Shown here: positions 1,723-63,905 of the stretch, piece after piece
Numbering within the stretch: the stretch's first letter is position 1
How the letters are laid out: the number at the start of each line of letters is the position of its first letter
From: Gemmatimonadales bacterium
GTDB lineage: Bacteria; Gemmatimonadota; Gemmatimonadetes; Gemmatimonadales; GWC2-71-9
Assembly: GCA_036006525.1 (NCBI GenBank)
Contig: DASYPP010000109.1
Span: 29,518-93,517 of the forward strand
Direction of reading: 5' to 3'
DNA length: 64,000 nt
Translations under genes and position numbers: made by a program
Notes under the pieces: model-generated
Told to the model about the DNA's origin: nothing
What the model saw: the letters and a program-made list of their open reading frames with translations, nothing else
Database searches by the model: none

Positions 1723-1822
1723 GGTGGGTCGGTGGGTACGTGGGTCGGTGGGTATGTGGGTAGGTGGGGCAGACAATGGGATGAACCAGGTTGCCCACTT
1801 ACCCACTTGCCCACTTACCCAC
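1723..1822. repeat. Inverted pair of tandem 8-mer arrays: GGTGGGTM-type x6 (1723-1769), 23-nt spacer, RCCCACTT x3.75 (1793-1822)
   Basis: Read directly: ggtgggtc ggtgggta cgtgggtc ggtgggta tgtgggta ggtgggg ... gcccactt acccactt gcccactt acccac. Each unit pairs over its GTGGGT/ACCCAC core (6 of 8 positions). It sits in the divergent promoter region. Confidence 0.9.
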
Positions 1823-1835
1823 GTTACTTTTCAGC

Positions 1836-4800
1836 ATGCTCCTCGCCCTCCTGCTGGCTCTTGGCACGCAGGCTCCCGACACAACCCACCTGGTCATCGT
1901 GTCCACGACCGACGTGCACGGGCACGCCACGGAGTGGAACTACCTGACTGACGCGCCGTACCCCGGCGGACTGGCCCGCGCCGCCACGGTGGTGGACTCA
2001 CTGCGCCGCCAGTATCCGGGACAGGTGATCCTGGTGGACGCGGGGGACATTATTGAAGGCGAGCCGTTCGCGGCCTACTTCGCCCGCGAGGCCCCCCGGG
2101 ATCCCCACCCGATTTTCGATGTCATGGCCGCCATGGGTTACGACGCGGCAACGCCTGGCAACCACGACTTCAACTACGGAGTTCCCTTCCTGTTCCGGTC
2201 GCTGCGCTCGGCCGGGTTTCCCTATGTCAGCGGAAACATCTACACCCTCCCGGTCGATACCCTCGCCTTGCCCGGGTTCGTCGTGGTGCAGCGCGGCGGC
2301 GTGCGGGTCGGGATCACCGGCTTTACCACGCCGGGCGTGATGCTCTGGGACCGGGATAACGTGGCGCAGAAGAGCCGAGTTGCCCGGATTGCCACGGCGG
2401 CGCCGGCGATCCTGCGCCGGCTCGCCGCCGCCTCCGACTTCAGCATTGTCCTGGCCCACTCCGGGCTGGACGGGGCCAGCTCCTACGATACCGCCGGGGT
2501 CGGGCCGGAGAATGTGGCGGCCGGCTTCGCGGCCTTCGAAAACAAGCCCAACCTGGTCATCGTCGGGCATACCCATCGCGAGTTCGCCGACTCGGTGATT
2601 AACGGCGTGCACTTCGTACAGCCGAAGCCGGGCGCCCAGAGCGTCTCGGTCGTCCACGTGACGCTGGAACGAAACGGCGAGGGCTGGCGGGTGCGGCGGA
2701 TCCGGGGAGAACTGATCCAGCTGGCGCGAGTCACTCCATCGGTGGCGATCACCCGCCGGCTGGCGACCGCCCACGAAGCCGTGCGCCGCTGGGCGACGGC
2801 GCCGCTCGCCAGCGCCAGCCAGGCGATGCCGGCGTTGACCGCCCGGGTCGAGCCTACGGCGATCATCAACTACCTCAACGAACTGCAGCGGCGCAAAGCG
2901 GGCACCGATCTCTCGGCCACCGCCGTCTTCGATCCGAATGCCGGGTTGCCCGCCGGTGACTTTACCCTGGCGCGGGTGACGGCGCTCTATCCCTATGAGA
3001 ACACGCTGGTAGGCATCCGCATCACCGGGGTCCAGCTCAAGGCATTCCTGGAACAGAGCGCTCGCTACTTCAACCTGGATGGCGCCGGGAAGGTATCGTT
3101 GAACGACAGCATCGCCGGATACAATTACGACGTGGTGGGCGGGGCCGAGTATGCCATCGATCTCCGGCTCCCGGTCGGAGACCGGATCCGGGGACTGTCG
3201 GTGCGTGGCCGGCCGGTCGAGCCGGGGGATCAATTCACCATTGCGCTCAACAGCTACCGGGCTGCCGGCGGAGGCGGATACGCCATGCTCGCCGGGTCGC
3301 CGGTGGTGTACAATCGCGGCGAAAACATCCGCGAGCTCATCGTGACCGACCTAAGGGCGCGCAGCATGCTTCGGGCGGAGGATTTCGCCACCCAGAACTG
3401 GCGGATCCTGCCGGATGAAGCTGCCCGGGCCGCGCGACGCCTCTTCACGCCGACGCCGGAACCGCCCCGTGCGATGCCGCCGCGGGACACCATCCTGCTC
3501 CGGATTTTCGCGATCACCGATCTGCACGGGGCGCTCGAAGCGAAGGTCCAGAGCTGGTCCGGGGACCGGCCGGTCGGCGGCATGCCGGCGCTCAAGCGTT
3601 TGATGGATAGCCTCACCACCCAGTGCGGGTGTGCCGATCTCCGGCTCGACAGCGGTGACGAAATGCAGGGGACCCTCGCCTCCAACCTGGAATACGGCCG
3701 CTCCACGGTCAGCGCGATGAACCGGCTGGGGATCGACGCGGCCGCGGTGGGCAACCATGACTTCGACTGGTCGGTGGATACCCTGCTCCGGCGCATGGCC
3801 GATGCCCGGTATCCCTGGCTGGTGGCGAACCTGGTGGACTCCGCCACCGGGGCCCGCCCCGATTGGGCGGTGCCCTACAAGGTGCTGCAGGCGGGGCGCC
3901 TTCGGGTCGGCGTTATCGGCTACATCACACCGGAGACCAAGGAGATCGTTCGCGGCGACCTTCTCGCCGGGCTCCGGTTCGAAGGCCCGGCCAGCCTGGT
4001 CCAGCCGCTGCAGGCGCTCCGGGCGGAGCATCCCGACCTGGTCATTCTCCTGGCCCACGAAGGCGCCAGCTGCGAGCAGGGGGCGGATGGCGGATGCAGT
4101 GGGCCGATCCTGGATCTGGCCCGGAACCTGGACAGCACGTCGGTGGACCTGATTCTGGCGGGTCACTCGCACCGGCTGGCCAACACCCGGGTCAACGGGA
4201 TCCCGATCCTCGAGGCGGCCAGCAGTGGCACCGCGGTCGCCCTGGTGGACGTGGTGAAGACGCTGGTGGGCTCGCGCGAGTTCAGGACTCGAATGATCAC
4301 GCCCTACGCGGACAGCATCGGGGCGGATACCGGCATGGCCAGACTGATCGCTCAGTCCAGGCGGGGCACCGACTCGCTGGCCAACCGGGTTATCGCCAGC
4401 CTGAAGGTTCCCATGAACCGGCAGGGCGACCAGTATCCGCTGGGCAATCTCTTCGCCGACGCTGAACGGAACGCGCTCCGGAGCGATTTCGCGCTCATGA
4501 ACAACGGCGGCATCCGGGCCGGGTTGCCGGCTGGTCCGGTCAATTATTCCCAGGTCTTCGAAGTAGCCCCGCTCGACAACAACCTGGTCCGGATCCGGAT
4601 TACGGGGAGCCAGATGAAAGCCGTGCTGGAGCATGTCCTCGAAGGCGGGACTCCATCCGCCCACGTCGCCGGACTTCGGGTCACCTATGATGCGAGCCGT
4701 CCTGTCGGTCGCCGAGTCCGCGAAGCCCTGCTGCTGAACGGTAAGCGGATGGAAGACCGCGCCACTTACACCCTCGCCATCAACGATTTCCTGGCCGGCG

Positions 4801-4943
4801 GCAAGAGCGGGTACACCACGCTTCCGGCGCTTCCCCAGGAAGCCTCGGGGATCGCCGCCCTCGATGCGTTGATCACCTACCTTCGGCGGTTGCCGCAGCC
4901 GGTCGCCCCGCCTGAAGATGTCCGTTTCGTCTCCGGACACTGA
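1836..4943 (+). CDS. Secreted bifunctional 5'-nucleotidase / 2',3'-cyclic phosphodiesterase-type protein with two complete tandem modules
   Basis: Module 1 motifs: STTDVHGH, DAGDIIEG, GNHDFNYG, GHTHREF. Module 2 (from about nt 3490): AITDLHGA, DSGDEMQG, GNHDFDW, GHSHRL. Each is followed by a 5'-nucleotidase C-terminal-like region. I prefer the ATG at 1836 (MLLALLLALGTQA signal-like). The track start at 1791 (TTG) lies inside a repeat arm. Confidence 0.8.
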   Translation: MLLALLLALGTQAPDTTHLVIVSTTDVHGHATEWNYLTDAPYPGGLARAATVVDSLRRQYPGQVILVDAGDIIEGEPFAAYFAREAPRDPHPIFDVMAAMGYDAATPGNHDFNYGVPFLFRSLRSAGFPYVSGNIYTLPVDTLALPGFVVVQRGGVRVGITGFTTPGVMLWDRDNVAQKSRVARIATAAPAILRRLAAASDFSIVLAHSGLDGASSYDTAGVGPENVAAGFAAFENKPNLVIVGHTHREFADSVINGVHFVQPKPGAQSVSVVHVTLERNGEGWRVRRIRGELIQLARVTPSVAITRRLATAHEAVRRWATAPLASASQAMPALTARVEPTAIINYLNELQRRKAGTDLSATAVFDPNAGLPAGDFTLARVTALYPYENTLVGIRITGVQLKAFLEQSARYFNLDGAGKVSLNDSIAGYNYDVVGGAEYAIDLRLPVGDRIRGLSVRGRPVEPGDQFTIALNSYRAAGGGGYAMLAGSPVVYNRGENIRELIVTDLRARSMLRAEDFATQNWRILPDEAARAARRLFTPTPEPPRAMPPRDTILLRIFAITDLHGALEAKVQSWSGDRPVGGMPALKRLMDSLTTQCGCADLRLDSGDEMQGTLASNLEYGRSTVSAMNRLGIDAAAVGNHDFDWSVDTLLRRMADARYPWLVANLVDSATGARPDWAVPYKVLQAGRLRVGVIGYITPETKEIVRGDLLAGLRFEGPASLVQPLQALRAEHPDLVILLAHEGASCEQGADGGCSGPILDLARNLDSTSVDLILAGHSHRLANTRVNGIPILEAASSGTAVALVDVVKTLVGSREFRTRMITPYADSIGADTGMARLIAQSRRGTDSLANRVIASLKVPMNRQGDQYPLGNLFADAERNALRSDFALMNNGGIRAGLPAGPVNYSQVFEVAPLDNNLVRIRITGSQMKAVLEHVLEGGTPSAHVAGLRVTYDASRPVGRRVREALLLNGKRMEDRATYTLAINDFLAGGKSGYTTLPALPQEASGIAALDALITYLRRLPQPVAPPEDVRFVSGH

Positions 4944-7645: not shown

Positions 7646-8472
7646 GCGAGGCACAGCGGCTGGATCGATCCCGAGCGGTGATTCGCCAACGGCTGGGAGA
7701 TCGGCGGCCGGTTGCCGCGGTGGTACTGGGTTCCGGTCTCGGGGTTCTGAGCAGCAAGGTCGCCAATGCGGTCCATATTCCATACCAGGAGATTCCTGGC
7801 TTCCCGGTCCCGTCGGTTGAGGGACATTCCGGTGAGCTGGTGGCCGGAACTCTTGCCGGCCGTGAAGTCCTGGTGCAAAGCGGCCGGTTCCACGTGTACG
7901 AGGGCCATTCGGCGGCGACGGCAGCGCTCCCGGTCCGGGTATTTGCCGCCCTGGGGATCGACACCCTCCTGCTGACCAATGCCGCGGGCGGCATCCGGCG
8001 TACCTTTGCACCCGGCACCCTGATGCTGATTGCGGACCAGGTGAACCTGAGCGGTCGCCACCCGCTCGCCGGCCCGGTACTCCCCGGCGAGGATCGGTTT
8101 CCCGACATGTCGGAGCCGTACGACGCCGAACTTTGCGCCAAGGCTCGACGAGTCGCGAAGGAGAAGGGAATTCGGCTCGCGGAAGGTGTCTACGCCGGGT
8201 TGCTGGGGCCGAGTTACGAGACGCCGGCGGAAATCCGGATGCTGGAGCGCCTGGGGGCGGATGCGGTAGGGATGTCCACCGTGCCCGAGGTGATCGTGGC
8301 GCGGGCGAGGGGCATGCGCTGTCTCGGTATCTCGACCATCACCAATGCGGCAGCGGGCATCAGCCTGACCAGGCTTTCCCATGCCGAAGTGATGAAAGCA
8401 GCGGAACTCGTGAAGAATGATCTTGCGGCGATTCTGGAAGGAGTCATTGAAGGACTGGGGACTAAGGACTAG
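7642..8472 (+). CDS. punA: Purine nucleoside phosphorylase (PNP/MTAP family, inosine/guanosine type)
   Basis: VVLGSGLG...IPGFPVPSVEGHSGELV...GRFHVYEGH...GMSTVPE...ISTITN. GTGA overlap with the nupC stop. The TAG stop lies inside the GGACTRR array. Confidence 0.85.
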   Translation: MSEAQRLDRSRAVIRQRLGDRRPVAAVVLGSGLGVLSSKVANAVHIPYQEIPGFPVPSVEGHSGELVAGTLAGREVLVQSGRFHVYEGHSAATAALPVRVFAALGIDTLLLTNAAGGIRRTFAPGTLMLIADQVNLSGRHPLAGPVLPGEDRFPDMSEPYDAELCAKARRVAKEKGIRLAEGVYAGLLGPSYETPAEIRMLERLGADAVGMSTVPEVIVARARGMRCLGISTITNAAAGISLTRLSHAEVMKAAELVKNDLAAILEGVIEGLGTKD

Positions 8473-8482
8473 GGACTAAGGA
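8452..8482. repeat. Single-arm tandem heptamer array, GGACTRR x4.4
   Basis: ggactgg ggactaa ggactag ggactaa gga. It contains the stop codons of both convergent genes: punA TAG at 8470-8472, and thiD TAG on the minus strand at 8476-8478. Confidence 0.9.
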
Positions 8483-9285
8483 ATTATGCGGTGATTTACC
8501 GGTCCGTGGCCTTTGCCGAGTGGAGCAGCCGTTTCAATGGCACGATGGACATAGCCGAGGCCATCTTCCACTGCCTGGTCCAGGCGTCGGCCCAGGGCCA
8601 GTCCGGCGGTGATCGCGGCGGACAGGGTGCAGCCGGTGCCGTGAGTGCTGCCGGAATTGATGCGCCGGTGGGTGAAACGGCGAGCCATGCCGGGGAGGAC
8701 CAGCAGGTCGACGATGCTGTCTCCGTCGAGGTGGCCGCCTTTGATCAGCGCCGCCCCGGCGCCCATCTCCAGCAGGCGGCGTCCGGCCGCTTCCATCTGA
8801 TCCGGATCGCGCACCCTGCTGCCGGTCAGCACCTCGGCTTCGTCCAGGTTCGGCGTCACCAGGGCGGCGAGTGGGAGCAGATCCTTCTGGAGCGCGGACT
8901 CCGCGTCGGTTGCCAGCAGGCGGTCGCCCGCCGTCGCCACCATGACCGGGTCGAGCACGTAGTGGCGCCAATCGCGCGCCCGGATCTCCCGTGCCACGAG
9001 CCGGATCAGGGCCGCGGTCGCCAGCATCCCGGTCTTGAGGGCGGCGGGCGGCAGGTCCTCGGCGACGGCAGCAATCTGGGCCGAAACGATGTCGTCGGGT
9101 ACCAGGTGGACGGCGCGGACGCCGACGGTATTCTGCGCCGTGATTGCCACGATCACGCTGGTGCCGTGCACGCCGAACTGATGAAAGGTCTTGAGATCGG
9201 CCTGGATGCCGGCGCCGCCGCCGGAATCGGACCCGGCGATCGTCAGGGCGATGGGGGGAGGAATGAGATTCGTAGCCATCTTCAC
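8476..9285 (-). CDS. thiD: Hydroxymethylpyrimidine/phosphomethylpyrimidine kinase
   Basis: [33 protein letters not shown]...[10 protein letters not shown]...HGTGCTLS. Confidence 0.9.
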
Positions 9286-9324
9286 TCAAGGTAAAACGAT
9301 GGGCTTCCCGAGGCAGCGGCGCGC

Positions 9325-10856: not shown

Positions 10857-11027
10857 GGGATCAGGCTGAGGGCGAGGAGAACCGCACACCACAGAGATGC
10901 AGAGGTACCCAGAGGTTGCCGCAGAGGAAAGCGACAGGAATTGTTCTTCTTTGCGACTTCGCGCCTTTGGGTCAGGCAGTTGCAGGCCTCTACCCTCCGC
11001 TTTGTTCGCAAGGACCTCAGGAGGCGG

Positions 11028-12230
11028 ATGAAGAACCGTAATGCAGTTCCGATGGCCTGCCTTGTTCTCACACTTGCCTGCCGCGGCGAGGCCCGCGCTC
11101 CCGAGCGCGATGACCTCAGGTCCCTGGTGGACAGTCTCCAGCCATCGGTGGAACGGGCCGTCGGGCTCAAGTTCAAGGCGCCGATCACGGTGGCGACCCG
11201 GAACCGCGACCAGTTGCGCACGTTTCTTCTCGAAAAAGTCGACGAGGAGCTGCCGCCCGCGCGGTTGCACGGCACCGAATACGCGTATCGGCTGCTGGGA
11301 CTCCTGCCCGACACCCTGGACCTGGAGAAGTTCCTGGTGGCTCTGCTCACCGAGCAGGTCGCCGGGTTCTACGATCCGCGAACCGCAACGTTGTATGGCA
11401 TGGAAGGCTACGATCGCGCCAAGCTGACGCTGATCATGGCCCACGAGATGGTGCACGCGCTGCAACACCAGTACCTGCCGCTCGATTCCATTCTTCAGCC
11501 GCAGGCCGATGACGACCGGCAGGTCGCCGCCCAGGCCATCCTCGAGGGCCAGGCCACCATCGCGTCGGTCAAGGCGCTATTGCCGGAGGGGATGACAATT
11601 CCGCCCGAGCTATGGAGCCAGTCCCGCGACATGCTGGCGGACGCCCAGTCTTCCATGCCGCTCTTCGCCAACGCCCCACTGGTGATCCGGGAGGAGCTGC
11701 TCTTCCCGTATCTGGCCGGCGCGGACTTCATGATGTGGTGGTCCCAGTCGGCCCACAGCGACACTCTGCCGTACGGCCCGCTGATGCCGCGCTCCAGCGA
11801 GCAAATCCTCCAGCCGGAACGATACTCCGCCGGCGATGAACCCATGGCACTGCGCTTCGTCGGCCAGGACGATGCGCTGTTCGAAAACACCCTGGGTGAC
11901 CTCACCATCCGAATCCTGGCCGCCCAGCTCGCCGGGGCGCCGGAGATTGCAGCGAAACTCACCCTGGGATGGCGGGGCGATCGCTTTCGGGTCTACGACA
12001 CGCCGTCAGGCCCCGCGTTGATATGGGTGATCGCCTGGGATGACGAAACCGCTGCCGACCGCTTTGAACGCGGGACCGGCGCCGCGCTCGTTGCGCGTTC
12101 CCGGCCCGACTATCGAAACGACCTGGTGAGATCCGTGGTGGGGGGAGTGCGGGCGACGCGCATCGTGCTTGCTCCTGTCGGCTGGATGAGGTGGCTGAAC
12201 CTGCCGCAGGTGATGAGTACTGGGTACTGA
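11028..12230 (+). CDS. Putative zinc-metalloprotease lipoprotein (HExxH), function unknown
   Basis: I moved the start to the ATG at 11028, which has AGGAGG 4 nt upstream. MKNRNAVPMACLVLTLAC is a lipobox. HEMVHALQH motif. The TGA stop lies inside the GTACTGN array. Confidence 0.6.
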   Translation: MKNRNAVPMACLVLTLACRGEARAPERDDLRSLVDSLQPSVERAVGLKFKAPITVATRNRDQLRTFLLEKVDEELPPARLHGTEYAYRLLGLLPDTLDLEKFLVALLTEQVAGFYDPRTATLYGMEGYDRAKLTLIMAHEMVHALQHQYLPLDSILQPQADDDRQVAAQAILEGQATIASVKALLPEGMTIPPELWSQSRDMLADAQSSMPLFANAPLVIREELLFPYLAGADFMMWWSQSAHSDTLPYGPLMPRSSEQILQPERYSAGDEPMALRFVGQDDALFENTLGDLTIRILAAQLAGAPEIAAKLTLGWRGDRFRVYDTPSGPALIWVIAWDDETAADRFERGTGAALVARSRPDYRNDLVRSVVGGVRATRIVLAPVGWMRWLNLPQVMSTGY

Positions 12231-12305
12231 GTACTGCGTACTGAATTCCGGAGATTGAAACACCCCAGATCAGCACCCAGCACCCAGTACCCAGTCCCAG
12301 CACCT
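12217..12305. repeat. Inverted pair of heptamer arrays: GTACTGN x4 (12217-12244), 26-nt spacer, CAGYNCC x5 (12271-12305)
   Basis: gtactgg gtactga gtactgc gtactga ... cagcacc cagcacc cagtacc cagtccc cagcacc. The upstream gene stop (TGA at 12228-12230) is inside unit 2. Confidence 0.9.
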
Positions 12306-12668: not shown

Positions 12669-12698
12669 TTGATTTACCCCCACCCCTAAGGGTATTAT
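12669..12698 (+). promoter_or_regulatory. Candidate sigma70-like promoter (TTGATT-18-TATTAT) just upstream of ffh
   Basis: ttgatt at 12669-12674 and tattat at 12693-12698. The ffh ATG at 12708 is only about 10 nt after the -10 box and has no Shine-Dalgarno, so the transcript would be leaderless or near-leaderless. Confidence 0.4.
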
Positions 12699-14048: not shown

Positions 14049-14089
14049 GTCACTCGGACCTGTCACTTGTCATCTGTCACTTGTCACTA
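14049..14089. repeat. Single-arm heptamer array, GTCAYYT x4, plus one isolated copy
   Basis: gtcactc (14049-14055), then gtcactt gtcatct gtcactt gtcacta (14062-14089). Lies between ffh and rpsP. Confidence 0.85.
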
Positions 14090-14101: not shown

Positions 14102-14350
14102 ATGGCAACTCGTATTCGCCTGCGTCGCGTGGGCCGCAAGGGATTGGCGCTGTACCGGATCGTGATCGCGGACAAGGAAGCCCCCCGCGACGGGCGGTTC
14201 ATTGAAACGATCGGCACCTACCAGCCCAAGGCGGACAAGAACCCGGTCACGGTGGACGCCGAGAAGGCGCGCGCCTGGATGGCCAAGGGCGCTACGCCGA
14301 CGGAGACGGTCGCTTCGCTTCTGAAGAAGGCTGGGGTCTTTGCGAAATAG
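14102..14350 (+). CDS. rpsP: 30S ribosomal protein S16
   Basis: [36 protein letters not shown] prefer the ATG at 14102 over the track TTG at 14081. Confidence 0.95.
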
Positions 14351-14438
14351 CTTATAGCATATGGCTTATGGCAACTGCCGCTAAGGGGGTCTGCCTCCGT
14401 CGCGGAACTGCCATATGCTATACGCCATACGTCTTATG
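14350..14438. repeat. Inverted pair of heptamer arrays, CATATGG-type family
   Basis: Left arm: gcttata gcatatg gcttatg gcaactg (14350-14377). Right arm: ccatatg ctatacg ccatacg tcttatg (14411-14438). There is a 13-nt perfect complement (tatagcatatggc / gccatatgctata). The rpsP stop abuts the left arm, and the rimM ATG is in the last right-arm unit. Confidence 0.9.
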
Positions 14439-14965: not shown

Positions 14966-15050
14966 GCCTATCGCGTATCGCTTATCGCGAGTCCTTGAGA
15001 GATTCGACCGCTCGAAGGCGCTGCCATATGCCATATGCCATATGCTGCTG
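14966..15050. repeat. Inverted pair of heptamer arrays: GCNTATC x4, then GCCATAT x3 plus one degenerate unit
   Basis: gcctatc gcgtatc gcttatc gcgagtc (14966-14993) ... gccatat gccatat gccatat gctgctg (15023-15050). The arms pair at 5 of 7 positions per unit. The trmD ATG (15042) is inside the right arm. Confidence 0.85.
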
Positions 15051-15728: not shown

Positions 15729-15729
15729 A

Positions 15730-15808
15730 GCGTACGGTTATAGCATATGGCAGTGTGCTGATTTGAGATCCCAACAATCACACTGCCATACGCCATACGC
15801 CATAAGCA
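15730..15808. repeat. Inverted pair of heptamer arrays, CATATGG-type family
   Basis: gcgtacggttatagcatatggcagtg (15730-15755) ... cactgcc atacgcc atacgcc ataagca (15781-15808). cactgccata is an exact complement of tatggcagtg. Starts 2 nt after the trmD stop. Confidence 0.9.
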
Positions 15809-19326: not shown

Positions 19327-19347
19327 GTCCTTAGTCCTTAGTCCTTG
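19327..19347. repeat. Single-arm heptamer array, GTCCTTR x3 (reverse complement of the GGACTAA family)
   Basis: gtcctta gtcctta gtccttg. Lies between the aminopeptidase stop (19308) and tRNA-Lys (19356). Confidence 0.85.
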
Positions 19348-20743: not shown

Positions 20744-20844
20744 CGGTAAGGCGGTAGGGCGGTACGGCGGTAAAAAACGAAAAACCCCGGGCAACGAAGC
20801 TCGGGGTTTTTCCATACTACTTACCGCCGTACCGCCTTACCGCC
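20744..20844. repeat. Inverted pair of 8-mer arrays (CGGTANGG x3.75 / CKTACCGC x3) enclosing an intrinsic terminator
   Basis: cggtaagg cggtaggg cggtacgg cggtaa (20744-20773) ... cttaccgc cgtaccgc cttaccgc c (20820-20844). The arms are complementary over about 29 nt, with 1-2 mismatches. Confidence 0.9.
20781..20810. terminator. Bidirectional intrinsic terminator nested inside the 8-mer arms
   Basis: aaaaccccgggc aacgaa gctcggggtttt. GC-rich stem with one mismatch, an A-run on the 5' side and a T-run on the 3' side. Lies between convergent genes. Confidence 0.8.
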
Positions 20845-22001
20845 TATGGTGTCACTACGAACGAGTTGCTCTGCAGCTGCACCGTTCCGAAACCCGACAA
20901 GGACGCCGTCACCACGATCGCATAGGTGCCGGGACTGCTCACCCTGAGATCGTCGTAGGTCTCGATTCCTGAACTCCCGGTGACGTTGGTCAGCGTACCG
21001 GACAGATTGCCGGTCCCCGTGATCCTGACCAGCGTGAGCGTGGACGATACCTCGGGCAACGGGGTGCCCCCGTTCCCCTTCGCCAGTACCCGCACCGAAG
21101 GCGTGATCACCTGGCCGGCCTGGACGGTCGAGGGCTGGCTCAGATAGGACAGGTTGATGCTTTGGGCATCCACCACCCCGAAGTCACTGAAGCCGGTCGC
21201 CGAACCACCCACCGGACCCAGGGCATTCGTCCCGATCGGAGCCGGCGCGGAACAGGCGAGGAAAGAGCTTGCGTCGCGCAGGAAGAGGATGCTGTGCGGC
21301 GTCGCCGTGTGGCTTTCCTCGATCCGGTACCGGCCTGGATTGGTAATACAGAACCCGATCACCGCGCCGGCATTGATGATCGGGCTGGGCGGCAGCGAGG
21401 ACCAGGCGTACGGGCTCCCGACCAGGATCTCCTGGAAGGTCGCCGCCGGGTTAGGAGTTCCGAACAGGAGAACCCGCTTGCCGAACACGGCCGGCCAGGT
21501 GGACTCCTGCAACCCGACGCCGGAGAGGCCGTCGCTCGAGAGCACCGGTGCGGCCGGATCGGTAGTTCCGCCTCGCACCCCGAACCCACCCGGCCCAAGC
21601 GGACCCGAGAAGTCGATCGGCAATGCGGGCGAGCCCACGGTCATGCAGGCGAGCAGCGCGTTGGCCAGCGCCGAGCCGGCCTGGGGAGTGCCGATCTGCC
21701 GATGACCGTTCCTGGCGCTCTCGATCAGGGCCAGCACGTCAAATCCCTTGTCGGTCGCCCGGAGAAAGTCTCCGCCGACGAAGAACTGCTGCATCTGGGC
21801 GACCAGGCTCTTGGCCGGGGCCCGGTCGATCACGGCGAAGTAGCCCCGGATCAGGTCGTTCATGACGCCGAACTGGCAGGCGGCATCAGTAGTGGCGAGC
21901 GCCGGTTGATCGGTGGCCGTCGGCTGGCGGGAATCAACGCAGGCGACGGCAATAGCGGTGGCCGCGGCAAGGACGCCTAAGCCAAAATGTGTGGAACGCA
22001 T
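20844..22001 (-). CDS. Hypothetical lipoprotein with a C-terminal Ig-like/beta-sandwich-looking region
   Basis: I moved the start to the ATG at 22001 (MRSTHFGLGVLAAATAIAVAC, a lipobox). The C-terminal roughly 100 aa (INLSYLSQPSTVQAGQVITPSVRVLA...TYAIVVTASL) resembles Big-type domains. Confidence 0.6.
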   Translation of the reverse strand: MRSTHFGLGVLAAATAIAVACVDSRQPTATDQPALATTDAACQFGVMNDLIRGYFAVIDRAPAKSLVAQMQQFFVGGDFLRATDKGFDVLALIESARNGHRQIGTPQAGSALANALLACMTVGSPALPIDFSGPLGPGGFGVRGGTTDPAAPVLSSDGLSGVGLQESTWPAVFGKRVLLFGTPNPAATFQEILVGSPYAWSSLPPSPIINAGAVIGFCITNPGRYRIEESHTATPHSILFLRDASSFLACSAPAPIGTNALGPVGGSATGFSDFGVVDAQSINLSYLSQPSTVQAGQVITPSVRVLAKGNGGTPLPEVSSTLTLVRITGTGNLSGTLTNVTGSSGIETYDDLRVSSPGTYAIVVTASLSGFGTVQLQSNSFVVTP

Positions 22002-26642: not shown

Positions 26643-27500
26643 GTGACCACGACGATTTTCATTGATGGCAAATGGCACGATCGGTCCACCGCGATGGTCT
26701 CGGTATTCGATCACGGCCTGCTGTACGGCGATGGCGTGTTCGAAGGCATGCGGGCCTACAACGGCAAGGTCTTCAAGCTCCGGGAGCACGTGGCCCGGCT
26801 TTTTGATTCCGCGCATTGCATCGCCCTGACGCCGCCCTTGGCGCAGGAGGAGCTGGTCCAGATCACCGAGGAAGGGGTCCGGAAATCGGGACTCAAAGAC
26901 GCCTACCTGCGGCACATTATCACCCGGGGCGTGGGCGATCTGGGGCTGGATCCCCGCAAGTGCCCCACGCCATCGATGCTGATCATCGTCGACCAGATCA
27001 AGCTGTGGTCACCCGAGCGCTATGAGCAGGGATTGAACGTCGTCACCGCCGCCACACCGATCCCCCAGAAAGAATCGCTCTCTCCCCGGGTCAAGTCCCT
27101 CAACTACCTCTGTCACATCCTCGCCAAGATCGAAGGGACCAACGCCGGCGCCGACGAGGTGCTGATGATGGATTCGAGTGGCACCGTGGTGGAGGCGTCA
27201 GGCATGAACGTGTTTGTGGTGAAGAACCGGGAATTGTTCACCCCCGCGCCCCACGCCGGCATCCTCAAGGGTATCACGCGCGACACCGTGATCGAGCTGG
27301 CCCGCGCCGCGGGCCTGGTGGTGCACGAGACGGTGCTCAACCGCTACGACATCTACACGGCCGACGAGGCATTTCTCACCGGTACCGCCGCCGAGATCGC
27401 CGCGATCCGCCAGCTTGACGGCCGGATGGTGGGCGCCGGACGCCAGGGACCGATAACCCGCGATCTTTCGTTGAAATTCCAGGCCTATGTGAGGGACTAA
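26643..27500 (+). CDS. ilvE: Class IV aminotransferase (branched-chain amino acid aminotransferase type)
   Basis: GTG start at 26643. VFDHGLLYGDGVFEGMRAYNGKVFKLREHVARL...SLNYL...GILKGITR. The TAA stop lies inside the GGACTAA array. Confidence 0.8.
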   Translation: MTTTIFIDGKWHDRSTAMVSVFDHGLLYGDGVFEGMRAYNGKVFKLREHVARLFDSAHCIALTPPLAQEELVQITEEGVRKSGLKDAYLRHIITRGVGDLGLDPRKCPTPSMLIIVDQIKLWSPERYEQGLNVVTAATPIPQKESLSPRVKSLNYLCHILAKIEGTNAGADEVLMMDSSGTVVEASGMNVFVVKNRELFTPAPHAGILKGITRDTVIELARAAGLVVHETVLNRYDIYTADEAFLTGTAAEIAAIRQLDGRMVGAGRQGPITRDLSLKFQAYVRD

Positions 27501-27566
27501 GGACTACGGACTAAGGACTCCAGCAGGCTAGTTCTCAGCACTTAGTCCTTAGTCCTTAGTCTTTAG
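27494..27566. repeat. Inverted pair of heptamer arrays: GGACTAA-type x4, 19-nt spacer, CTTAGTC x3.7
   Basis: ggactaa ggactac ggactaa ggactcc (27494-27521) ... cttagtc cttagtc cttagtc tttag (27541-27566). The ilvE TAA stop (27498-27500) is in unit 1. Confidence 0.95.
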
Positions 27567-44290: not shown

Positions 44291-44914
44291 ATGAACCTGC
44301 CCTACGATCGAGATATCTCAGTTCAGCATCTCCGTGCCGCCGACCCCCGGCTCGCGTTGGTGATCGACCGCGCCGGGCCCTGCCGCCTGGAACTGGAAAC
44401 GGTGCAAGATCCCTTCGCGGCGCTGGCGCAGTCCATCGTGTATCAGCAACTCACCGGCAAGGCGGCCGGGACCATTCATGGCCGGCTGGTCGGACTGTTC
44501 AAGCCGGCCCGGCGGCTCAGGCCCGAATCGCTGCTGGAAGCCTCGGATGAGCGGCTCCGTGGCGCGGGCCTTTCCCGCGGCAAGGTCGCGGCTCTGCGAG
44601 ACCTCGCCTTGAAGAGCCTGGACGGCACGGTGCCCTCCATGACCAGACTGCGGCGCATGGAGAACGAGGAGATCATCGAGCGACTGACCTCGATCCGGGG
44701 AATCGGCCGCTGGACGGTGGAAATGCTGCTGATCTTCCGACTGGGCCGCCCGGACGTGCTGCCGGTGACCGACTACGGAGTCCGCAAGGGGTTCGCGCGG
44801 GCGTTCAGGAAGCGGAAGCTGCCGACACCCGCCCAGCTGGAGCGATACGGCCGGCGATGGGCGCCGTATCGCTCAGTGGCTGCCTGGTACCTGTGGCGAG
44901 CCTGTGAGGAATGA
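44291..44914 (+). CDS. HhH-GPD DNA glycosylase (AlkA / 3-methyladenine glycosylase II-like)
   Basis: I moved the start to the ATG at 44291. FAALAQSIVYQQLTGKAA, LTSIRGIGRWTVEMLLIF..GRPDVLPVTDYGVRKG. The TGA stop overlaps the first unit of the 9-mer array. Confidence 0.8.
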   Translation: MNLPYDRDISVQHLRAADPRLALVIDRAGPCRLELETVQDPFAALAQSIVYQQLTGKAAGTIHGRLVGLFKPARRLRPESLLEASDERLRGAGLSRGKVAALRDLALKSLDGTVPSMTRLRRMENEEIIERLTSIRGIGRWTVEMLLIFRLGRPDVLPVTDYGVRKGFARAFRKRKLPTPAQLERYGRRWAPYRSVAAWYLWRACEE

Positions 44915-45031
44915 GGGGATTGAAGGGATTGAGGGGATTGAAGGGATTGAAGGGATTGAGGGGATTGAGGGGATTGAAAGTATCTCAACCCAATCCCATC
45001 AATCCCGTCAATCCTATCAATCCCCTCAATC
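44913..45031. repeat. Inverted pair of 9-mer arrays: GARGGGATT x7.5 (44913-44980), 10-nt spacer, CAATCCNNT x4.5 (44991-45031)
   Basis: Read directly. This is the largest array in the window. It fills the whole gap between two convergent stop codons (44912-44914 and 45033-45035). Confidence 0.95.
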
Positions 45032-59506: not shown

Positions 59507-60943
59507 GTGACTGAACTCGTACGCCCTCGCGTTCTTCTCCTTGGCGATCCGGCCGCGCGGCCGGAAGGGCTGGAGCGCGCGCTGGTGCGAGGTGGTTTCC
59601 AGGTTACCGAAGCCGACAGCATCACGATTTCCCGCCCCAGCGGTCCCCTCCCCGATCTCATCCTGCTGACCTCGGCCGAAGCCGATGCGCATCTGACCGA
59701 GGAGCTGGGCCGGCTCGCCGGCCGGCATTGGCAAGGGGTACCTATCGTCGTCGTGCTGAACCGTGGCGATGCCGAGGCGGTGACTCGCATGCTCGGGCTG
59801 GGCGCGTCCGACGTGATGGTGAGTCCCGGCCACCTGCCCGAGATCATTGCCCGGGCCCATGCCCGGATCAAGGGGCGCACCGATGTGGACGGAATGCGCC
59901 AGTCATCCGAGCAGCATGAACTGCTGTTCGACATTTTTCAGGAAGCCTCCGGCGCGCTCCGGCCCGATGAGATCGTGCAGACGCTGGTGCGCCGCATCGG
60001 CGAGGCGCTGAACCTGGCGCGGTGCTCCTTCGTGCTCACCCCCGCCGGGGAGCAGGTGGGGCGGGTGCTCGCGGTCTTCGAGAATCCCACGGTGCGCGAT
60101 CTCCAGGTGGACCTGACCCGCTACCCGGAGATCGTCGAAGCGGTGCGCACCGAACGGCCGGTGGTCGTGTCCGATGTGCAGGAGCATCCGCTTTTCCAGA
60201 GCGTACGGCAGCGATGGTCGGACCAGCACGTGCAGCCCGACCTCAGGAGCGTGGTGGCGCTGCCGGTGAACCTGCAGGGCCGCACGCCTGGAGTCTTCCT
60301 GCTGCGCACCGGCGCCAACGATGTCCCCCTCACCGACCAGCAGCTCGAGTTTGCCCAGACCCTGTCCAAGGCCGCCAGCCGGCTCTTGGAAACCGAAGAA
60401 CGGCGGGCCGGCGTCTACCGCCGCCAGGCGCAGGCGGGCGCCACCGATCCGCTCACTGGCTGCGGCAGCCTCGACGCGCTGGACCGGAGAATTCGCGAGG
60501 AGTTCGAGCGGGCCCGGCGCTACGCCCTGAGCTTCAGTCTCATCCTGCTCGATGTCGATGAGCTGCGGACCCTCAACGACCGCTTCGGCACCGTTACCGG
60601 CGACCGGGTGCTGGTGGAGCTGGGCTCCATTCTGCAGCGCGAGCTTCGCGCTCCGGATTTCGTCTCCCGCTATGGCGGCGACGAGTTTGCCCTCATCCTC
60701 CCCGAGACCGACCTGGACGGCGCCCGCCGCTCGGTAGGCCGGGTGCGCAATCGCATTGCGTCGCATCCCTTCGCCGATCTCCTCCCCGAGAACCGGCCCC
60801 GGCTGTCCGCCGGCATCGTGTCATTCCCTCATCCTTCCGCGCTGCAGACCGAAGACCTGTTCGCGTTGGTGGAAGCGGCGTTGTTGCGGGGGAAGGCGCA
60901 GAAGGAAGAGAGAATCGGTACTGCGGAGAGTGTCGCCGCCTGA
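59507..60943 (+). CDS. Diguanylate cyclase: degenerate receiver, GAF and GGDEF domains
   Basis: The N-terminal REC-like fold lacks the acidic pocket (LLLGDP, LILLTSAE). GAF-like middle region. RYGGDEFALILPE preceded by RAPD (RxxD I-site spacing). Confidence 0.85.
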   Translation: MTELVRPRVLLLGDPAARPEGLERALVRGGFQVTEADSITISRPSGPLPDLILLTSAEADAHLTEELGRLAGRHWQGVPIVVVLNRGDAEAVTRMLGLGASDVMVSPGHLPEIIARAHARIKGRTDVDGMRQSSEQHELLFDIFQEASGALRPDEIVQTLVRRIGEALNLARCSFVLTPAGEQVGRVLAVFENPTVRDLQVDLTRYPEIVEAVRTERPVVVSDVQEHPLFQSVRQRWSDQHVQPDLRSVVALPVNLQGRTPGVFLLRTGANDVPLTDQQLEFAQTLSKAASRLLETEERRAGVYRRQAQAGATDPLTGCGSLDALDRRIREEFERARRYALSFSLILLDVDELRTLNDRFGTVTGDRVLVELGSILQRELRAPDFVSRYGGDEFALILPETDLDGARRSVGRVRNRIASHPFADLLPENRPRLSAGIVSFPHPSALQTEDLFALVEAALLRGKAQKEERIGTAESVAA

Positions 60944-61026
60944 TCCTGAGCGCCGCGAAGGATCTCTAGCCGGCGTCTTCTGGTGCGAGTAAAGAGATCC
61001 TTCGGTTCGCTACGCTCCCTCAGGAT
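60942..61026. terminator. Long hairpin between the convergent diguanylate cyclase and envC-like genes
   Basis: Inner 12-bp stem: cgaaggatctct (60956-60967) / agagatccttcg (60993-61004). Outer stem: atcctgag (60942-60949) / ctcaggat (61019-61026). There is no clear U-run. Confidence 0.55.
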
Positions 61027-62237
61027 TACCGTCGTCGCCGCAGCCAGTCTGCCGGGTCCAGCGCAATTCCATTCTCACCGCGAATCTCGAAGTACAGTTG
61101 GGAGCCCTCGTCCGAGGTGGCCTCGCCTACCGTCGCGATGACCTGCCCCCGGGCGACCGCCGCTCCGACTGCGACCCGGGTTTCGCCCAGGTGCATGTAG
61201 AGGGAGCGGTACCCATTGCCGTGCTGGATGCCCAGCGTGAGGCCATAGGTGCTGAGCCGCTGGATAAACTCCACCGTGCCGGACTCAACGGCCTTGACCG
61301 CGGTTCCCGGGCTGGCCGCGATTCCGATCCCGTTGCGCCGAATCACGCCGCCACTGGGCAGGGTTACCCGCCCAAACGGATACAGGATGTTGCCGTCGAC
61401 CGGCCAATCGAGCTTGCCGATGTCGGACGTGGTAAGCGAGCCGGCAACCGGAGTGCCGGCCTCGCCGGCCCGGCGGTTGCGCTCCAGCGTGGCGAGCAGG
61501 TCATTGAGCCGGTTCTCGTCCCGCTCCAGGTCGCTCAATCGCTGCTCGGTGCTCCGGGTCCGGCCCTGGACCTGGCGCAACCGCTGCGATCGCTCGTTGG
61601 CCAGGGTGCCGTAGTTCTGCAGCTCGGTCTCCCGTTCCGCTCGCCGCCGGCTGAATTCGCTCCGCATCTGCACCACTTCCTGCCGCTGCCGCTGCACCCG
61701 GTCGCGGAGGCTTTCGACTTCGGTGAGCAGGGTGCGGTCCTGCCGGCTGGTGAGGTAGAGGTACTTGTAGCGGCTCAGCAGGTCGCCGAAGGACTCGGCT
61801 GCGAGCATGACCTGGAAGCCGTACAGCGGTCCCCGCTTGTAGATGTCCACCAGGCGGCGGGAGAGCACCGCGCGCTTCTCGGCCAGGTTGTCTTCCGCCA
61901 GCGCGAGATCCGAACTGACCTTGTCCACCTGCACGTTGAGCCCGCCGATCTGGGACTCCAGCTCGTTGACGATCCGATTGGTGGTCTCCCGCTGCCGCTC
62001 GATGTTGGACAATTCCTGGTCCAGGGTGTGAGCCTGGCCCTGTAGCCGGGTCCGCTCCTCCTGCAGCTGTTCCCGTTCCCGGCGGATCTGGTCGATCCGC
62101 CGCCGGCTTTCTTCCAGTTGTTGGGGGACGTTGTTCTGGGCAGCAACGACTGAAGGGGCGGCAACCAGCAGGAATCCGAGACACGCGAGGCTGTTCCTTA
62201 CCGCCGTACCGCCGTACCGCCTTAGCGCCCTAGACAT
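61026..62237 (-). CDS. EnvC-like murein hydrolase activator (coiled-coil plus M23/LytM domain)
   Basis: Long heptad-rich region (QLEESRRRIDQIRREREQLQEE...). C-terminal M23 domain GIGIAASPGTAVKAVESGTV...HLGE. I chose the start at 62237, which gives an 8-nt overlap with ftsX. The N-terminus is encoded by a repeat array. Confidence 0.8.
   Translation of the reverse strand: MSRALRRYGGTAVRNSLACLGFLLVAAPSVVAAQNNVPQQLEESRRRIDQIRREREQLQEERTRLQGQAHTLDQELSNIERQRETTNRIVNELESQIGGLNVQVDKVSSDLALAEDNLAEKRAVLSRRLVDIYKRGPLYGFQVMLAAESFGDLLSRYKYLYLTSRQDRTLLTEVESLRDRVQRQRQEVVQMRSEFSRRRAERETELQNYGTLANERSQRLRQVQGRTRSTEQRLSDLERDENRLNDLLATLERNRRAGEAGTPVAGSLTTSDIGKLDWPVDGNILYPFGRVTLPSGGVIRRNGIGIAASPGTAVKAVESGTVEFIQRLSTYGLTLGIQHGNGYRSLYMHLGETRVAVGAAVARGQVIATVGEATSDEGSQLYFEIRGENGIALDPADWLRRRR
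62196..62233. repeat. Single-arm 8-mer array, CCKTACCG x4.7 (same family as 20744-20844)
   Basis: ccttaccg ccgtaccg ccgtaccg ccttagcg ccctag. It contains the ftsX stop (62230-62232) and encodes the envC-like N-terminus SRALRRYGGTAVRN. Confidence 0.9.
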
Positions 62238-63099
62238 TACGCAAATGCCGGCCGACACTCACCAGGCTGGCGCTCAGACCCAGCAGCGTCCCGAACAGTA
62301 TGATGAGCGCGATGTGCACCGGCTGGAAGAACACCAGGCCGGTCGTGGTGCCGATCTGGTTGCCCCGGAACAGCAGGTAGCCCAGGTAACTGAGCAAGAC
62401 GGCCAGCGCTCCTCCCAGGAACCCTTTCAGCGCACCCTCAAGGAGGAATGGACCCCGCACGAACCAGTCACTGGCACCCACCAGCCGCATGATGGCGATT
62501 TCCCGGGCCCGTTGCAGCACGGTCATCCGGATGGTGGTCCCGATGATCACCACGGCCACTACGGCAAACGCCAGCCCGATCGTCATCACCACGAGTCCGG
62601 CAATGTTACGCAGCTTGTCCAGCCGCTCGATCCAGTCGCGGCCATAGCGCACGTCCTCCACGAACTGGTACGCCTTGACCCGGTCCGCCACGGCCCGCGC
62701 GTGCTCGGCGTCGCGGAAGCCTTCTTTCAGGCTGATCTCCAGCGAGGCCGGCAACGGATTCACCTGGAGGTCACGGTAGACGTCGCGGAACTCGACCATC
62801 GTGGTCCGGGCCCGCGCCAGCGCCTGCTCGGCGCTCACGTAGTCCACCGTCTGCACCTCGGGAAAGGCGGAGATGTCTTCCGAGGCGGTCGCGATGGTTT
62901 CCGGCGGTGTGCCGCGAAGCAGGAACGCCACGACCTCCACCCGCTCCTCCACGCCCCGCAATGCCGCCCGCAGGTTCAGCGCGACCAAGCCGAACAGGCC
63001 GACCACGAAGAGCGAAAAGGCGATGGTGGTGACGGAGAGTGCCGACAAGAGCGGTGCCCGGCGGAACGACAGCAGGGCCTCACGGGAAACCAGCCTCAC
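62230..63099 (-). CDS. ftsX: Cell division ABC transporter permease FtsX
   Basis: 289 aa with 4 TM helices and a large first periplasmic loop. Sits immediately downstream of ftsE with a 4-nt overlap. Confidence 0.9.
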   Translation of the reverse strand: MRLVSREALLSFRRAPLLSALSVTTIAFSLFVVGLFGLVALNLRAALRGVEERVEVVAFLLRGTPPETIATASEDISAFPEVQTVDYVSAEQALARARTTMVEFRDVYRDLQVNPLPASLEISLKEGFRDAEHARAVADRVKAYQFVEDVRYGRDWIERLDKLRNIAGLVVMTIGLAFAVVAVVIIGTTIRMTVLQRAREIAIMRLVGASDWFVRGPFLLEGALKGFLGGALAVLLSYLGYLLFRGNQIGTTTGLVFFQPVHIALIILFGTLLGLSASLVSVGRHLRNV

Positions 63100-63788
63100 T
63101 GCAGGTCCGCCCCGTTGGATTCGTCGAGCCCACTGTCGAAAACGATGCTGCCCTCCCGGAGTTCCACCGTGCGGTAGGACGTCTGGCGCACCAGGTCGAG
63201 GTCGTGCGTCGCCATGACGACACAGGTGCCACCTGCATTGATGTCCCGGAGGAGCTGAAAGACGCCACGGGTCGCCCGCTCGTCGAGATTGCCGGTCGGC
63301 TCGTCGGCGAGGAGAATCGCCGGGTCGTTCACCAGGGCGCGCGCGATCGCTACCCGCTGCTGCTCGCCCCCGGACAACTCCCGGGGATAGGCCGAGGCCT
63401 TTCCGGCCAGTCCCACCTGGGTCAGGACCCGCTGGACCCGGCCCGGGATGATCTCCCTGCGGGACCCGGTGACCTCGAGCGCAAAAGCCACGTTCTCTTC
63501 CGCGGTCCGGTCTTCCAGCAGTCGGAAATCCTGGAACACGATGCCCAGCCGCCGCCGGAGCTTGGGAATCTCCGAGGGAGACAGATCTCCGATGTCAAAA
63601 CCGGACACCCGCACATCGCCCGAGGAGGGACGCTGTTCGGCGAACATCAGTTTCAACATGGTAGACTTGCCGGCGCCGGAATGCCCGGTCAGAAAAACGA
63701 ACTCACCCTTCGCCACGTGAAGGGAGGCGTCTTTCAGCGCAAATCCACCCTTGGGAAACGACTTGAAGACGTGGGAGAATTGGATCAC
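63096..63788 (-). CDS. ftsE: Cell division ATP-binding protein FtsE
   Basis: GTG start at 63788 ([11 protein letters not shown]...). [28 protein letters not shown]. The track ORF extends through the repeat region. Confidence 0.9.
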
Positions 63789-63826
63789 ATGCGGAAGATA
63801 GGGATGGCAGCGGTCGGGGTAAAGAA

Positions 63827-63905
63827 GTACTGGGTGACGGGTACTGGGTACTGGGTGAACTTGCACGTCCAATCCAGTACGCAGTACCCGGTACCTTGGT
63901 TACCC
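63827..63905. repeat. Inverted pair of heptamer arrays (GTACTGG family, same as 12217-12305)
   Basis: gtactgg gtgacgg gtactgg gtactgg gtgaac (63827-63860), 13-nt spacer, ccagtac gcagtac ccggtac then degenerate units (63874-63905). The upstream gene stop (63900-63902) is in the degenerate end. Confidence 0.9.

Follow-up and report, generated by a model that had tools for sequence, protein, structure and literature searches.

Tandem arrays of 7- to 9-nucleotide units, often mirrored, at gene 3' ends in a Gemmatimonadales genome and its relatives

Few features of bacterial non-coding DNA are as over-represented, or as poorly understood, as heptamer-type long repeats; in a 2007 survey, as it is cited in PMC4692102 and PMC4679880, heptamers were the most over-represented of the bacterial long simple-sequence repeats. 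The closest described system is the GGGAATC repeat of Xanthomonas. Each genome has ~185 arrays, which usually contain four units, among them 70-75 convergently oriented pairs that lie, on average, 28 nucleotides (nt) from the upstream open reading frame, with 160 nt separating them from the following one (Rehm et al. 2015, PMC4692102). The lengths of the Xanthomonas arrays vary between species, while position and pair type are retained (PMC4692102). Here we analyzed a stretch of 64,000 nt from a Gemmatimonadales bacterium (GenBank contig DASYPP010000109.1, positions 29,518 to 93,517; hereafter the window), in which tandem arrays of 7-, 8- or 9-nt units, often followed by an array of the reverse-complement unit, lie at the 3' ends of genes. 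The phylum differs from that of Xanthomonas, being Gemmatimonadota, and the density of arrays is 0.28 per kb in the window versus ~0.04 per kb as calculated from the Xanthomonas counts.

Arrays of 7-9-nt units in the window and across the Gemmatimonadota

The original prediction, made from this DNA alone, had listed 14 loci of one architecture. We read all 14 directly in the sequence, ran Tandem Repeats Finder on the window, and applied our own detector, which required a period of 7-9, 2.85 or more copies and 78% or more identity of successive copies. Tandem Repeats Finder placed period 7-9 arrays at or beside all 14 coordinates and reported higher-order periods of 14, 16 and 18 as well. Our detector found 18 arrays in the 64 kb, whereas 30 dinucleotide-preserving shuffles averaged 0.2 and never exceeded 2; the G+C content of the window is 63-68% over its full length. 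The arrays contain 4.1-4.3 units on average and belong to at least eight unrelated families of 7-, 8- and 9-nt units, where at least seven had been proposed. Single-linkage clustering of the unit families chained them into one giant group, so that only the obvious recurrences were informative. These agree with the earlier reading: four families recur within the 64 kb, a count that holds for the window and not for the whole genome, namely GGACTAA three times (8.4, 19.3 and 27.5 kb), GTACTGG twice (12.2 and 63.8 kb), GGCGGTAA twice (20.7 and 62.2 kb) and a CATATGG-type unit three times. Two independent same-species assemblies, a JGI metagenome contig (L001, 99.92% identical) and a Logan assembly contig (L082), carry identical arrays with copy numbers equal to those of the window and differ from it by single substitutions only; the arrays are therefore not an assembly artefact, a concern that the prediction had itself raised. 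Rfam at gathering score matched only tRNAs, and no array, in the window and six related loci, and the contiguous 7-9-nt units do not resemble CRISPRs, which have 23-47-nt repeats with unique spacers. The view that coding-sequence, CRISPR, insertion-sequence and REP models leave these arrays unexplained thus stands. Taken together, the results support one real class of period 7-9 arrays with several unit families, from which one of the 14 loci has to be removed: the repeat at 16905 exists, but it is an in-frame coding repeat and is not a member of this class.

The closest Ffh relatives of the window were all Gemmatimonadales metagenome-assembled genomes (77-81% identity). Across the window and 72 non-redundant loci of the Gemmatimonadota (750 kb) there were 127 arrays of period 7-9 (~0.17 per kb), against 10 in 977 kb of control loci from other phyla (~0.01 per kb) and 1 in 161 kb of high-GC controls, indicating that the trait is tied to the lineage and not to base composition. 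For periods 7, 8, 9, 10 and 11 the counts were 70, 32, 25, 1 and 0 in the Gemmatimonadota, 9, 0, 1, 0 and 0 in the other-phyla controls, and 1, 0, 0, 0 and 0 in the high-GC controls. The period spectrum of the Gemmatimonadota therefore has a sharp upper limit after 9 nt, and the frequency order of unit lengths in these lineage-typical long simple-sequence repeats is 7, 8, 9 nt. Meanwhile, one control, a Deltaproteobacteria metagenome-assembled genome (L039), has three heptamer arrays (at 1, 4317 and 10518), so similar repeats occur in at least one other sampled lineage.

Since the synteny of the ffh-rpsP-rimM-trmD-rplS cluster is conserved, orthologous spacers could be compared. Spacers without arrays measure 0-30 nt and often carry a GGAG or AGGA ribosome-binding site; located just past the stop codon, the arrays expand them to 60-175 nt. 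At one junction, unrelated units are found across species: between rimM and trmD these are TATCGCG with TGCCATA, TAGCGGA, CGGGAAGGN, GGCGGACN, GGAGGTCT and CACGACC. In the sister species L083 (86% DNA identity), the arrays at 12217, 14062, 14350 and 15730 are kept with unchanged units and different copy numbers, the 3' arm at the 12217 locus consisting of 6.4 perfect CCAGTAC units. Copy numbers also differ between L007 and L084 and between L024 and L030. Furthermore, in the contigs L096 and L097 (99.9% identical), all 8 differing positions amount to one 7-nt unit plus one single-nucleotide polymorphism, inside a 43-nt array. The unit-number polymorphism that had been suggested as a check is thus present, and the arrays gain and lose whole units, the mark of replication slippage. 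In most other near-identical contig pairs, differences were not in excess within arrays, indicating that the arrays slip but are not hypermutable. Contingency loci were considered and ruled out, given this lack of excess change and the unchanged copy numbers of L001 and L082.

Genes were called roughly from codon usage, and those beside each array were checked against Pfam. Ten of the array-bearing spacers are co-directional, three convergent (8452, 20744 and 44913) and one divergent (1723), with 16905 lying within a gene; in the ffh-rpsP-rimM-trmD-rplS cluster, arrays occupy five consecutive spacers. All loci except 1723 and 16905, twelve in number, contain a stop codon or start no more than ~20 nt from one, and at several of them, including 8452 and 12217, the stop lies inside the array. 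Of 26 5' arms, 20 start between -20 and +10 nt relative to the upstream stop; three outliers of this count were small genes missed by the gene caller. In the long co-directional spacers, the hairpin is found at the upstream stop and not at the next start in 7 of 7 cases, leaving 89-394 nt free before the next gene. The original prediction had described the arrays as marking gene boundaries, nearly all of them starting near or containing a stop codon. The tie to stops holds for twelve loci and fails at 1723, which lies between two start codons, and at the coding repeat 16905; the arrays are better described as fillers of short spacers that are anchored to the 3' ends of genes. A stop triplet was present in 49 of the 126 purine-strand units versus 41.3 +/- 4.3 after shuffling (p ~0.04), so that seeding of the units by the stop codon is too weakly supported to be relied on.

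Folding of the RNA was scored against 200 dinucleotide shuffles. Eight of the nine inverted pairs originally proposed are true pairs that fold beyond the shuffles, those at 1723, 12217, 14350, 15730, 20744, 27494, 44913 and 63827 (z = -5.4, -4.8, -3.9, -3.3, -12.5, -5.4, -8.9 and -4.9, respectively), which bears out the arm complementarity on which the prediction had staked itself. Each of the eight, with arm-to-arm spacers of 13-49 nt, forms a single long stem interrupted about once per unit. The ninth, 14966/15022, joins the unrelated and non-complementary units TATCGCG and TGCCATA, and its folding is not above chance (z = -1.2). Folding at chance level was also seen for three unpaired arrays, 14062, 19327 and 62196 (dinucleotide shuffles), and for the one at 8452 (RNAfold, mononucleotide shuffles). 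In a general inverted-repeat scan, the array-based inverted repeats had a G-rich 5' arm and a C-rich 3' arm in 22 of 22 cases, compared with 27 G-first, 27 C-first and 17 neutral arrangements among the other inverted repeats of the same DNA. This G-first arrangement is identical whichever strand is read. The 3' arms are somewhat more uniform than the 5' arms (18 versus 7), a weak hint that the C-rich arm may be the derived one. As a separate observation, three relatives have complementary arrays, again G-first, that lie ~480-550 nt apart (L011 9355-9385 and 9863-9940; L040 9346-9380 and 9892-9959; L121 248 and 725); in L011 and L040 the distant C-rich array is just upstream of the ffh promoter region.

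The arms are more constrained than the loops between them. When five orthologous hairpins were aligned, 45 of the 332 arm positions had changed, compared with 75 of the 218 loop positions, so that the arms diverge 2.5 times more slowly. Relative to L083, at 86% overall identity, conservation reaches 97% in the ffh/rpsP spacer with its TGTCACT array (14043-14101) and 100% in the 5' arm at 14350, and the inner stem at 15730 stays paired through one compensatory double substitution (G-C to A-T) and two wobble changes. The ffh/rpsP spacer is also conserved above the synonymous sites of the neighbouring coding sequence in this comparison.

Array loci and neighbouring elements of the window

The pair nearest the start of the window fills the divergent spacer between a gene for an ArsR-type regulator (1299-1673, minus strand) and a 5'-nucleotidase gene (from 1836, plus strand), between the two starts and not at a stop codon. 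Its G-rich 5' arm (1723..1768) has 5.8 copies of GGTGGGTN and pairs with a C-rich 3' arm of 3.6-4 copies of CCCACTTR (1794..1824), which ends 12 nt ahead of the ATG at 1836. An unpaired array of 4.7 copies of GGACTRR (8450..8482) contains both stops of a convergent gene pair, a plus-strand TAG (8470-8472) and a minus-strand TAG that reads CTA on the plus strand (8476-8478), and it codes for the final residues of a PNP-family protein. No strand is assigned to these two loci.

On the plus strand, a 5' arm of 4.4 copies of GTACTGN (12214..12243) includes the stop TGA and the last 4-5 codons of the gene at 10941-12230, and is followed by a 3' arm of five copies of CAGYACC (12271..12304) and then TTTT. 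Further downstream, a promoter-like sequence, TTGATT-18-TATTAT, is found at 12669-12698, 10 nt ahead of the start of ffh. From the 12271 arm to this site, a stretch of 360 nt has only 42% identity to L083 and no recognised gene. The arrays of the following cluster are likewise on the plus strand. The ffh/rpsP spacer holds an unpaired array of four copies of TGTCACT (14060..14088). Between rpsP and rimM, a 5' arm of 3.7 copies of ATAGCTT/ATGGCTT (14347..14372) starts inside the rpsP stop TAG (14348-14350), and its GCCATAY-type 3' arm (14408..14431) ends 4 nt upstream of the rimM ATG at 14436. Between rimM and trmD, three copies of TATCGCG (14966..14989) start 3 nt past the rimM stop, and 3.4 copies of TGCCATA (15022..15045) overlap the trmD start codon at 15042. 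A degenerate 5' arm, GCGTACGGTTATAGCATATGGCAGTGTG, follows immediately past the trmD stop at 15728 (15729..15757), and its 3' arm is made of CACACTG and 2.9 copies of GCCATAC (15779..15808), leaving a 40-nt leader with AGGAG ahead of rplS. In the Gemmatimonadaceae, the ffh/rpsP spacers of L024 (10992-11100) and the equivalent spacers of L025-L032 contain a conserved ~90-nt element upstream of rpsP with the motif …GGTGCG..CCGGAA..CCGG..GCGAKGAGC…; it has no Rfam match and may be an undescribed ribosomal-protein leader.

The in-frame 9-nt repeat at 16905, GCTTCCCTC (16900-16933), encodes part of the signal peptide of an M1 peptidase gene (16870-19308). With a longer array (57 nt) in the sister species L083, the signal peptide is variable in length. 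An unpaired array of 2.9 copies of GTCCTTA (19327..19346, plus strand) lies between the peptidase stop (19308) and a tRNA-Lys gene (19356). At the convergent locus 20744, to which no strand is assigned, a G-rich 5' arm of 3.6 copies of CGGTANGG (20744..20772) begins directly after the stop TAA (20741-20743), and a C-rich 3' arm of three copies of TACCGCCN (20820..20845) adjoins the stop of the convergent gene at 20844. Nested between these arms is a canonical bidirectional intrinsic terminator, AAAAACCCCGGGC...GCTCGGGGTTTTT (20779..20812), composed of an A-tract, a CCCCGGGC/GCTCGGGG stem and a T-tract, whose stem is lengthened to ~38 bp by the array arms. The plus-strand pair at 27494 consists of 3.7 copies of GGACTAA (27494..27519), overlapping the stop TGA (27498-27500) of a class IV aminotransferase gene, and 3.7 copies of CTTAGTC (27541..27566). 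At the second convergent pair, again without an assigned strand, a G-rich 5' arm of 7.9 copies of GGGATTGAR (44908..44978) contains the stop TGA (44912-44914) of an HhH-GPD gene, and a C-rich 3' arm of 4.6 copies of CAATCCCNT (44991..45031) adjoins the stop of a convergent PhoX-like gene at 45033, so that both stop codons pair together at the base of the stem.

The last two loci are on the minus strand. An unpaired array, GGCGGTAM in the sense direction (62199..62229), lies immediately past the stop of an ftsX-like gene (62230-63099). The plus-strand GTACTGG array (4.3 copies, 63827..63856) is the 3' arm of the minus-strand transcript and lies 38 nt upstream of the ftsE-like start at 63788; the CCAGTAC-type array (63873..63895) is the 5' arm and starts 5 nt past the upstream stop TAA (63901-63903). 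A distinct inverted-repeat element, CTGATCCTGAGCGCCGCGAAGGATCTCT ... AGAGATCCTTCGGTTCGCTACGCTCCCTCAGGATTAC (60940-61030), fills a convergent spacer and has both stops inside. Members of its family (GTCATCCTGAGCGCAGCGAAGGA...) are also found between rimM and trmD in L018 and L083 and in the g7/g8 spacer of L003 and L011; it would appear to be a further dispersed hairpin family of REP- or MITE-like type that competes for the same spacers.

Variation within units is concentrated at particular phases (71 observed across all arrays versus 49.7 +/- 2.5 under the null), and only five arrays have three different bases at one phase. Such one-position variation is seen in the window at 12217 (GTACTG[G/A/C]) and 20744 (CGGTA[A/G/C]GG), and in relatives at L010 6217 (CGGT[G/C/A]AA), L011 9355 (GGCGGAC[G/T/A]) and L016 11951 (GACTCT[G/A/C]). 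Addition of a non-templated nucleotide at each unit junction was considered and rejected, block duplication accounting for much of the phase concentration, not all of it.

Possible origin and role of the arrays

We tentatively favor, at a little short of an even chance, an account in which the arrays are built by slippage, mirrored into hairpins and retained at gene 3' ends. Replication slippage would build the 7-9-nt arrays just downstream of the stop codon. In about half of the cases, a reverse-complement array is found 13-50 nt (occasionally ~90 nt) downstream, and this second arm probably originated from template switching or fold-back copying, after which each arm would evolve through its own slippage. 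The hairpin would then be retained because it structures the 3' end of the message from the upstream gene, with no need for a U-tract; it might terminate transcription, cause pausing or block 3'-exonucleases. For convergent genes it would serve both directions, and inside operons it would punctuate the message and could bury the next start site, as enterobacterial REP/BIME hairpins do; by analogy, REP/BIME is the likely model for how the arrays would act on mRNA. REP hairpins stabilise upstream mRNA segments, and in the rpsP-rimM-trmD-rplS operon of E. coli mRNA folding reduces the expression of rimM and trmD. The account is supported by the enrichment of arrays, whole-unit slippage, repeated independent origin, the folding of eight pairs, stop anchoring, the constraint on the arms and polarity, and by locus 20744, where the array arms extend the stem of a canonical terminator. 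The G-first rule and the dispersal of unit families are not explained by this account.

Several observations weigh against this account. A wobble signature is absent: RNA-level selection should make G.U mismatches more numerous than A.C ones, but in the operon hairpins with a known sense strand those of the G.U type number 13 and those of the A.C type 22, which gives no support for RNA pairing. The antisense RNA would fold much better at 12217 (-62.5 versus -35.3 kcal/mol) and at 15730 (-41.0 versus -29.2 kcal/mol). Most array hairpins have no U-tract, TTTT occurring after 12304 only, and a consensus terminator scan of 8001-28000 flagged none of the array hairpins, with counts at chance level; what it did flag was the nested canonical terminator alone (20782-20802). 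Arrays without a partner make up about half of the total, five loci of the window among them. Arrays are missing from most orthologous spacers and are therefore dispensable; in L083 the rimM/trmD array spacer is replaced by an unrelated inverted-repeat element. Locus 1723 is a positional exception in a divergent promoter region. Given the wobble null, the antisense folding, the missing U-tracts, the unpaired arrays and the dispensability, we give a function at mRNA ends somewhat less than an even chance; the hairpins may act on the RNA or the DNA level.

The same observations can be read as those of a neutral by-product, in which an unusually high rate of 7-9-nt slippage and template switching in the lineage leaves functionless arrays that pile up where frameshifts are harmless, from the stop onward. 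The array-free state of most orthologous spacers, the turnover of unit sequences, the whole-unit indels between near-identical strains and the missing wobble signature all fit, as does the in-frame period of 9 in the sole intragenic array (16905); moreover, duplications that include the stop, as several arrays do, keep the protein unchanged. This reading is nevertheless doubtful, as loops diverge 2.5 times faster than arms, the 14350 5' arm and the entire 14062 spacer are 97-100% conserved at 86% overall identity, the hairpin is placed at the stop despite 89-394 nt of free spacer, the G-first polarity is not found in other inverted repeats, and identical units recur at distant loci. Rather unlikely, and more so than a neutral by-product, is a sequence-independent process tied to gene 3' ends and of fixed polarity. 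In one version, nascent RNA past the stop would be free of ribosomes, and the G-rich non-template DNA, prone to R-loops or structure, would expand by slippage, after which the G-rich nascent strand would fold back and copy itself into the C-rich arm. Such a process would explain stop anchoring, the 22 of 22 G-first pairs, the many unit families and the more uniform 3' arms, and, if true, it would be a mutational mechanism making terminator-like hairpins de novo at gene ends in several phyla, at least the Gemmatimonadota and that of Xanthomonas. A role for non-B structure of DNA or RNA (a G-quadruplex in the G-rich arm, an i-motif in the C-rich arm, or a cruciform) in replication, recombination, local genome stability or transcription, of the kind put forward for the repeats of Xanthomonas and Nostoc, draws on the G-rich strand always running 5' to 3' toward the pair center, on the canonical motifs of four G3+ tracts in the arms at 1723 and 44908, on the match of GGGGATT(GA) to the Nostoc unit, and on the missing wobble signature, which would fit a role at the DNA level. 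We consider it improbable: four G3 tracts occur in only 26 of 126 arrays, so that canonical quadruplexes are not general, the GGACTAA, GTACTGG, CATATGG, TGTCACT and TATCGCG families are incapable of forming them, and a nearby complementary arm would compete by forming the hairpin.

Within operons, the stem could join the upstream stop and the downstream start and bury the initiation region of the latter, such that initiation of the next gene needs the terminating ribosome to open it, resulting in coupling or a set expression ratio. The arms at rpsP/rimM and rimM/trmD and in L007, L008 and L033 do span from the stop to within 0-12 nt of the next start, replacing the Shine-Dalgarno sequence that array-free orthologous spacers have as GGAG or AGGA, whereas rplS retains its free AGGAG leader after the hairpin. 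As a general explanation, such a translation device is quite improbable, since it is inapplicable to the convergent spacers 8452, 20744 and 44913, to the divergent locus 1723 and wherever 89-394 nt separate the hairpin from the next gene. Insertion of small non-autonomous mobile elements (REPIN- or MITE-like) at gene ends would account for the GGACTAA, GGCGGTAA and GTACTGG families at loci 19-50 kb apart in one genome, for the three occurrences of GAGGGTGTC in L024 and for the additional GGCGGTAA-type array that L083 has past the g7 stop and the window does not. Same-family copies, however, share the repeating unit only, with unrelated loops and flanks and no conserved termini or target duplications, which makes a mobile origin very unlikely; in addition, the arms change one unit at a time, and the units as singletons outside arrays are not over-represented, save for a modest excess of GTACTGG and GGCGGTA. 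Arrays of binding sites for a protein that recognises single- or double-stranded nucleic acid, one protein per unit, have been raised as an idea for the TAACTGA heptamer repeats (PMC4679880); cold-shock proteins have been put forward as such binders for other heptamer repeats. Here, variation concentrated at one phase of the unit around an invariant core, and 5' arms conserved beyond the needs of pairing, would be in line with it. With at least eight unrelated units in 64 kb and dozens across relatives, such a protein would need to have no sequence preference, and block duplication accounts for much of the phase concentration; of all the readings we give this one the least credence.

Relation to known repeat systems

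The lineage offers denser and more varied examples of heptamer-type repeats than Xanthomonas and the cyanobacteria, with many units, three unit lengths and one junction filled independently in many species, and this variety separates the effect of sequence from that of architecture. Any mechanism has to account for three rules: arrays beginning at the stop, a G-rich arm in first place, and conserved arms around drifting loops. If the hairpins do act on mRNA ends, operons throughout a widespread soil phylum would carry a major level of punctuation that annotation has missed; if their cause is mutational, they would show RNA structure arising without prior selection. In practical terms, the arrays break short-read assemblies and shift gene ends, the latter because several stop codons and C-terminal residues lie inside arrays.

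Among the known systems, REP, BIME and REPIN elements are likewise extragenic, located at gene 3' ends and within operons, and present as species-specific families of inverted pairs forming long hairpins. REPs, however, are fixed imperfect palindromes of 20-40 nt spread by a dedicated transposase, whereas the arms described here are made of locus-specific tandem micro-units without common loops or ends, and no RAYT (IS200/IS605-like) transposase was present among the 20 window proteins scanned against Pfam. Rho-independent terminators share with the array hairpins a stable stem-loop just past the stop, symmetry and bidirectional use between convergent genes. Such terminators are defined by a short GC-rich stem, a 3-8-nt loop and an immediately adjacent U-tract, but the array stems measure 25-40 bp with periodic mismatches, their loops reach 50 nt, a U-tract is usually missing, and they are found inside operons too. 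The TAACTGA repeats of marine Beggiatoaceae are abundant intergenic heptamer arrays of 2-6 units, as these are, and differ in having a single unit, in lying directly upstream of starts and in being almost never inverted, with one indirect repeat among 170 sets (PMC4679880).

The original prediction, which is partly supported overall, had named the STRR repeats of heterocystous cyanobacteria as the closest analogue. The comparison is a fair one, as the STRRs of Calothrix and Nostoc (GGGGAYT) are tandem heptamers, mostly intergenic, with a few families recurring per genome, as four do here within the 64-kb window, and the unit GGGGATT(GA) found here is the Nostoc unit. In Nostoc, however, inverted pairs are rare and many arrays intragenic, whereas here pairs are common and coding sequence is avoided, and the nearest Ffh relatives are all Gemmatimonadales, not heterocystous cyanobacteria. 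The broader class of bacterial long simple-sequence repeats (units of 5-11 nt), as represented in the papers that cite the 2007 survey, has the same period peak at 7, intergenic bias and whole-unit gain and loss; the arrays have the tandem copies above chance and the whole-unit copy changes between close relatives that define it, but the general class is silent on stop anchoring, inverted partners and arm polarity. A search of the available literature returned no paper linking Gemmatimonas or Gemmatimonadetes with such repeats.

The Xanthomonas GGGAATC arrays are much closer than the STRRs. They are, like those described here, intergenic, about four units long and often arranged in pairs with the G strand inward that are able to form a stem-loop, and in both systems the arrays are nearer to the upstream open reading frame than to the next and vary in length while keeping their place. 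Essentially one unit is used genome-wide in Xanthomonas, with a G3 tract that forms a quadruplex in vitro; here there are at least eight units, and only about a fifth of the arrays are capable of forming canonical quadruplexes. Lacking that single defining G3-tract unit, the arrays are not members of the GGGAATC family. Since the Xanthomonas arrays have the same architecture, including polarity and stop anchoring, and the over-representation of heptamers has been on record since the 2007 survey, as cited in those later papers, the kind is therefore already known; what is new is its occurrence in the Gemmatimonadota, its density, and the many families of 7-, 8- and 9-nt units within one genome.

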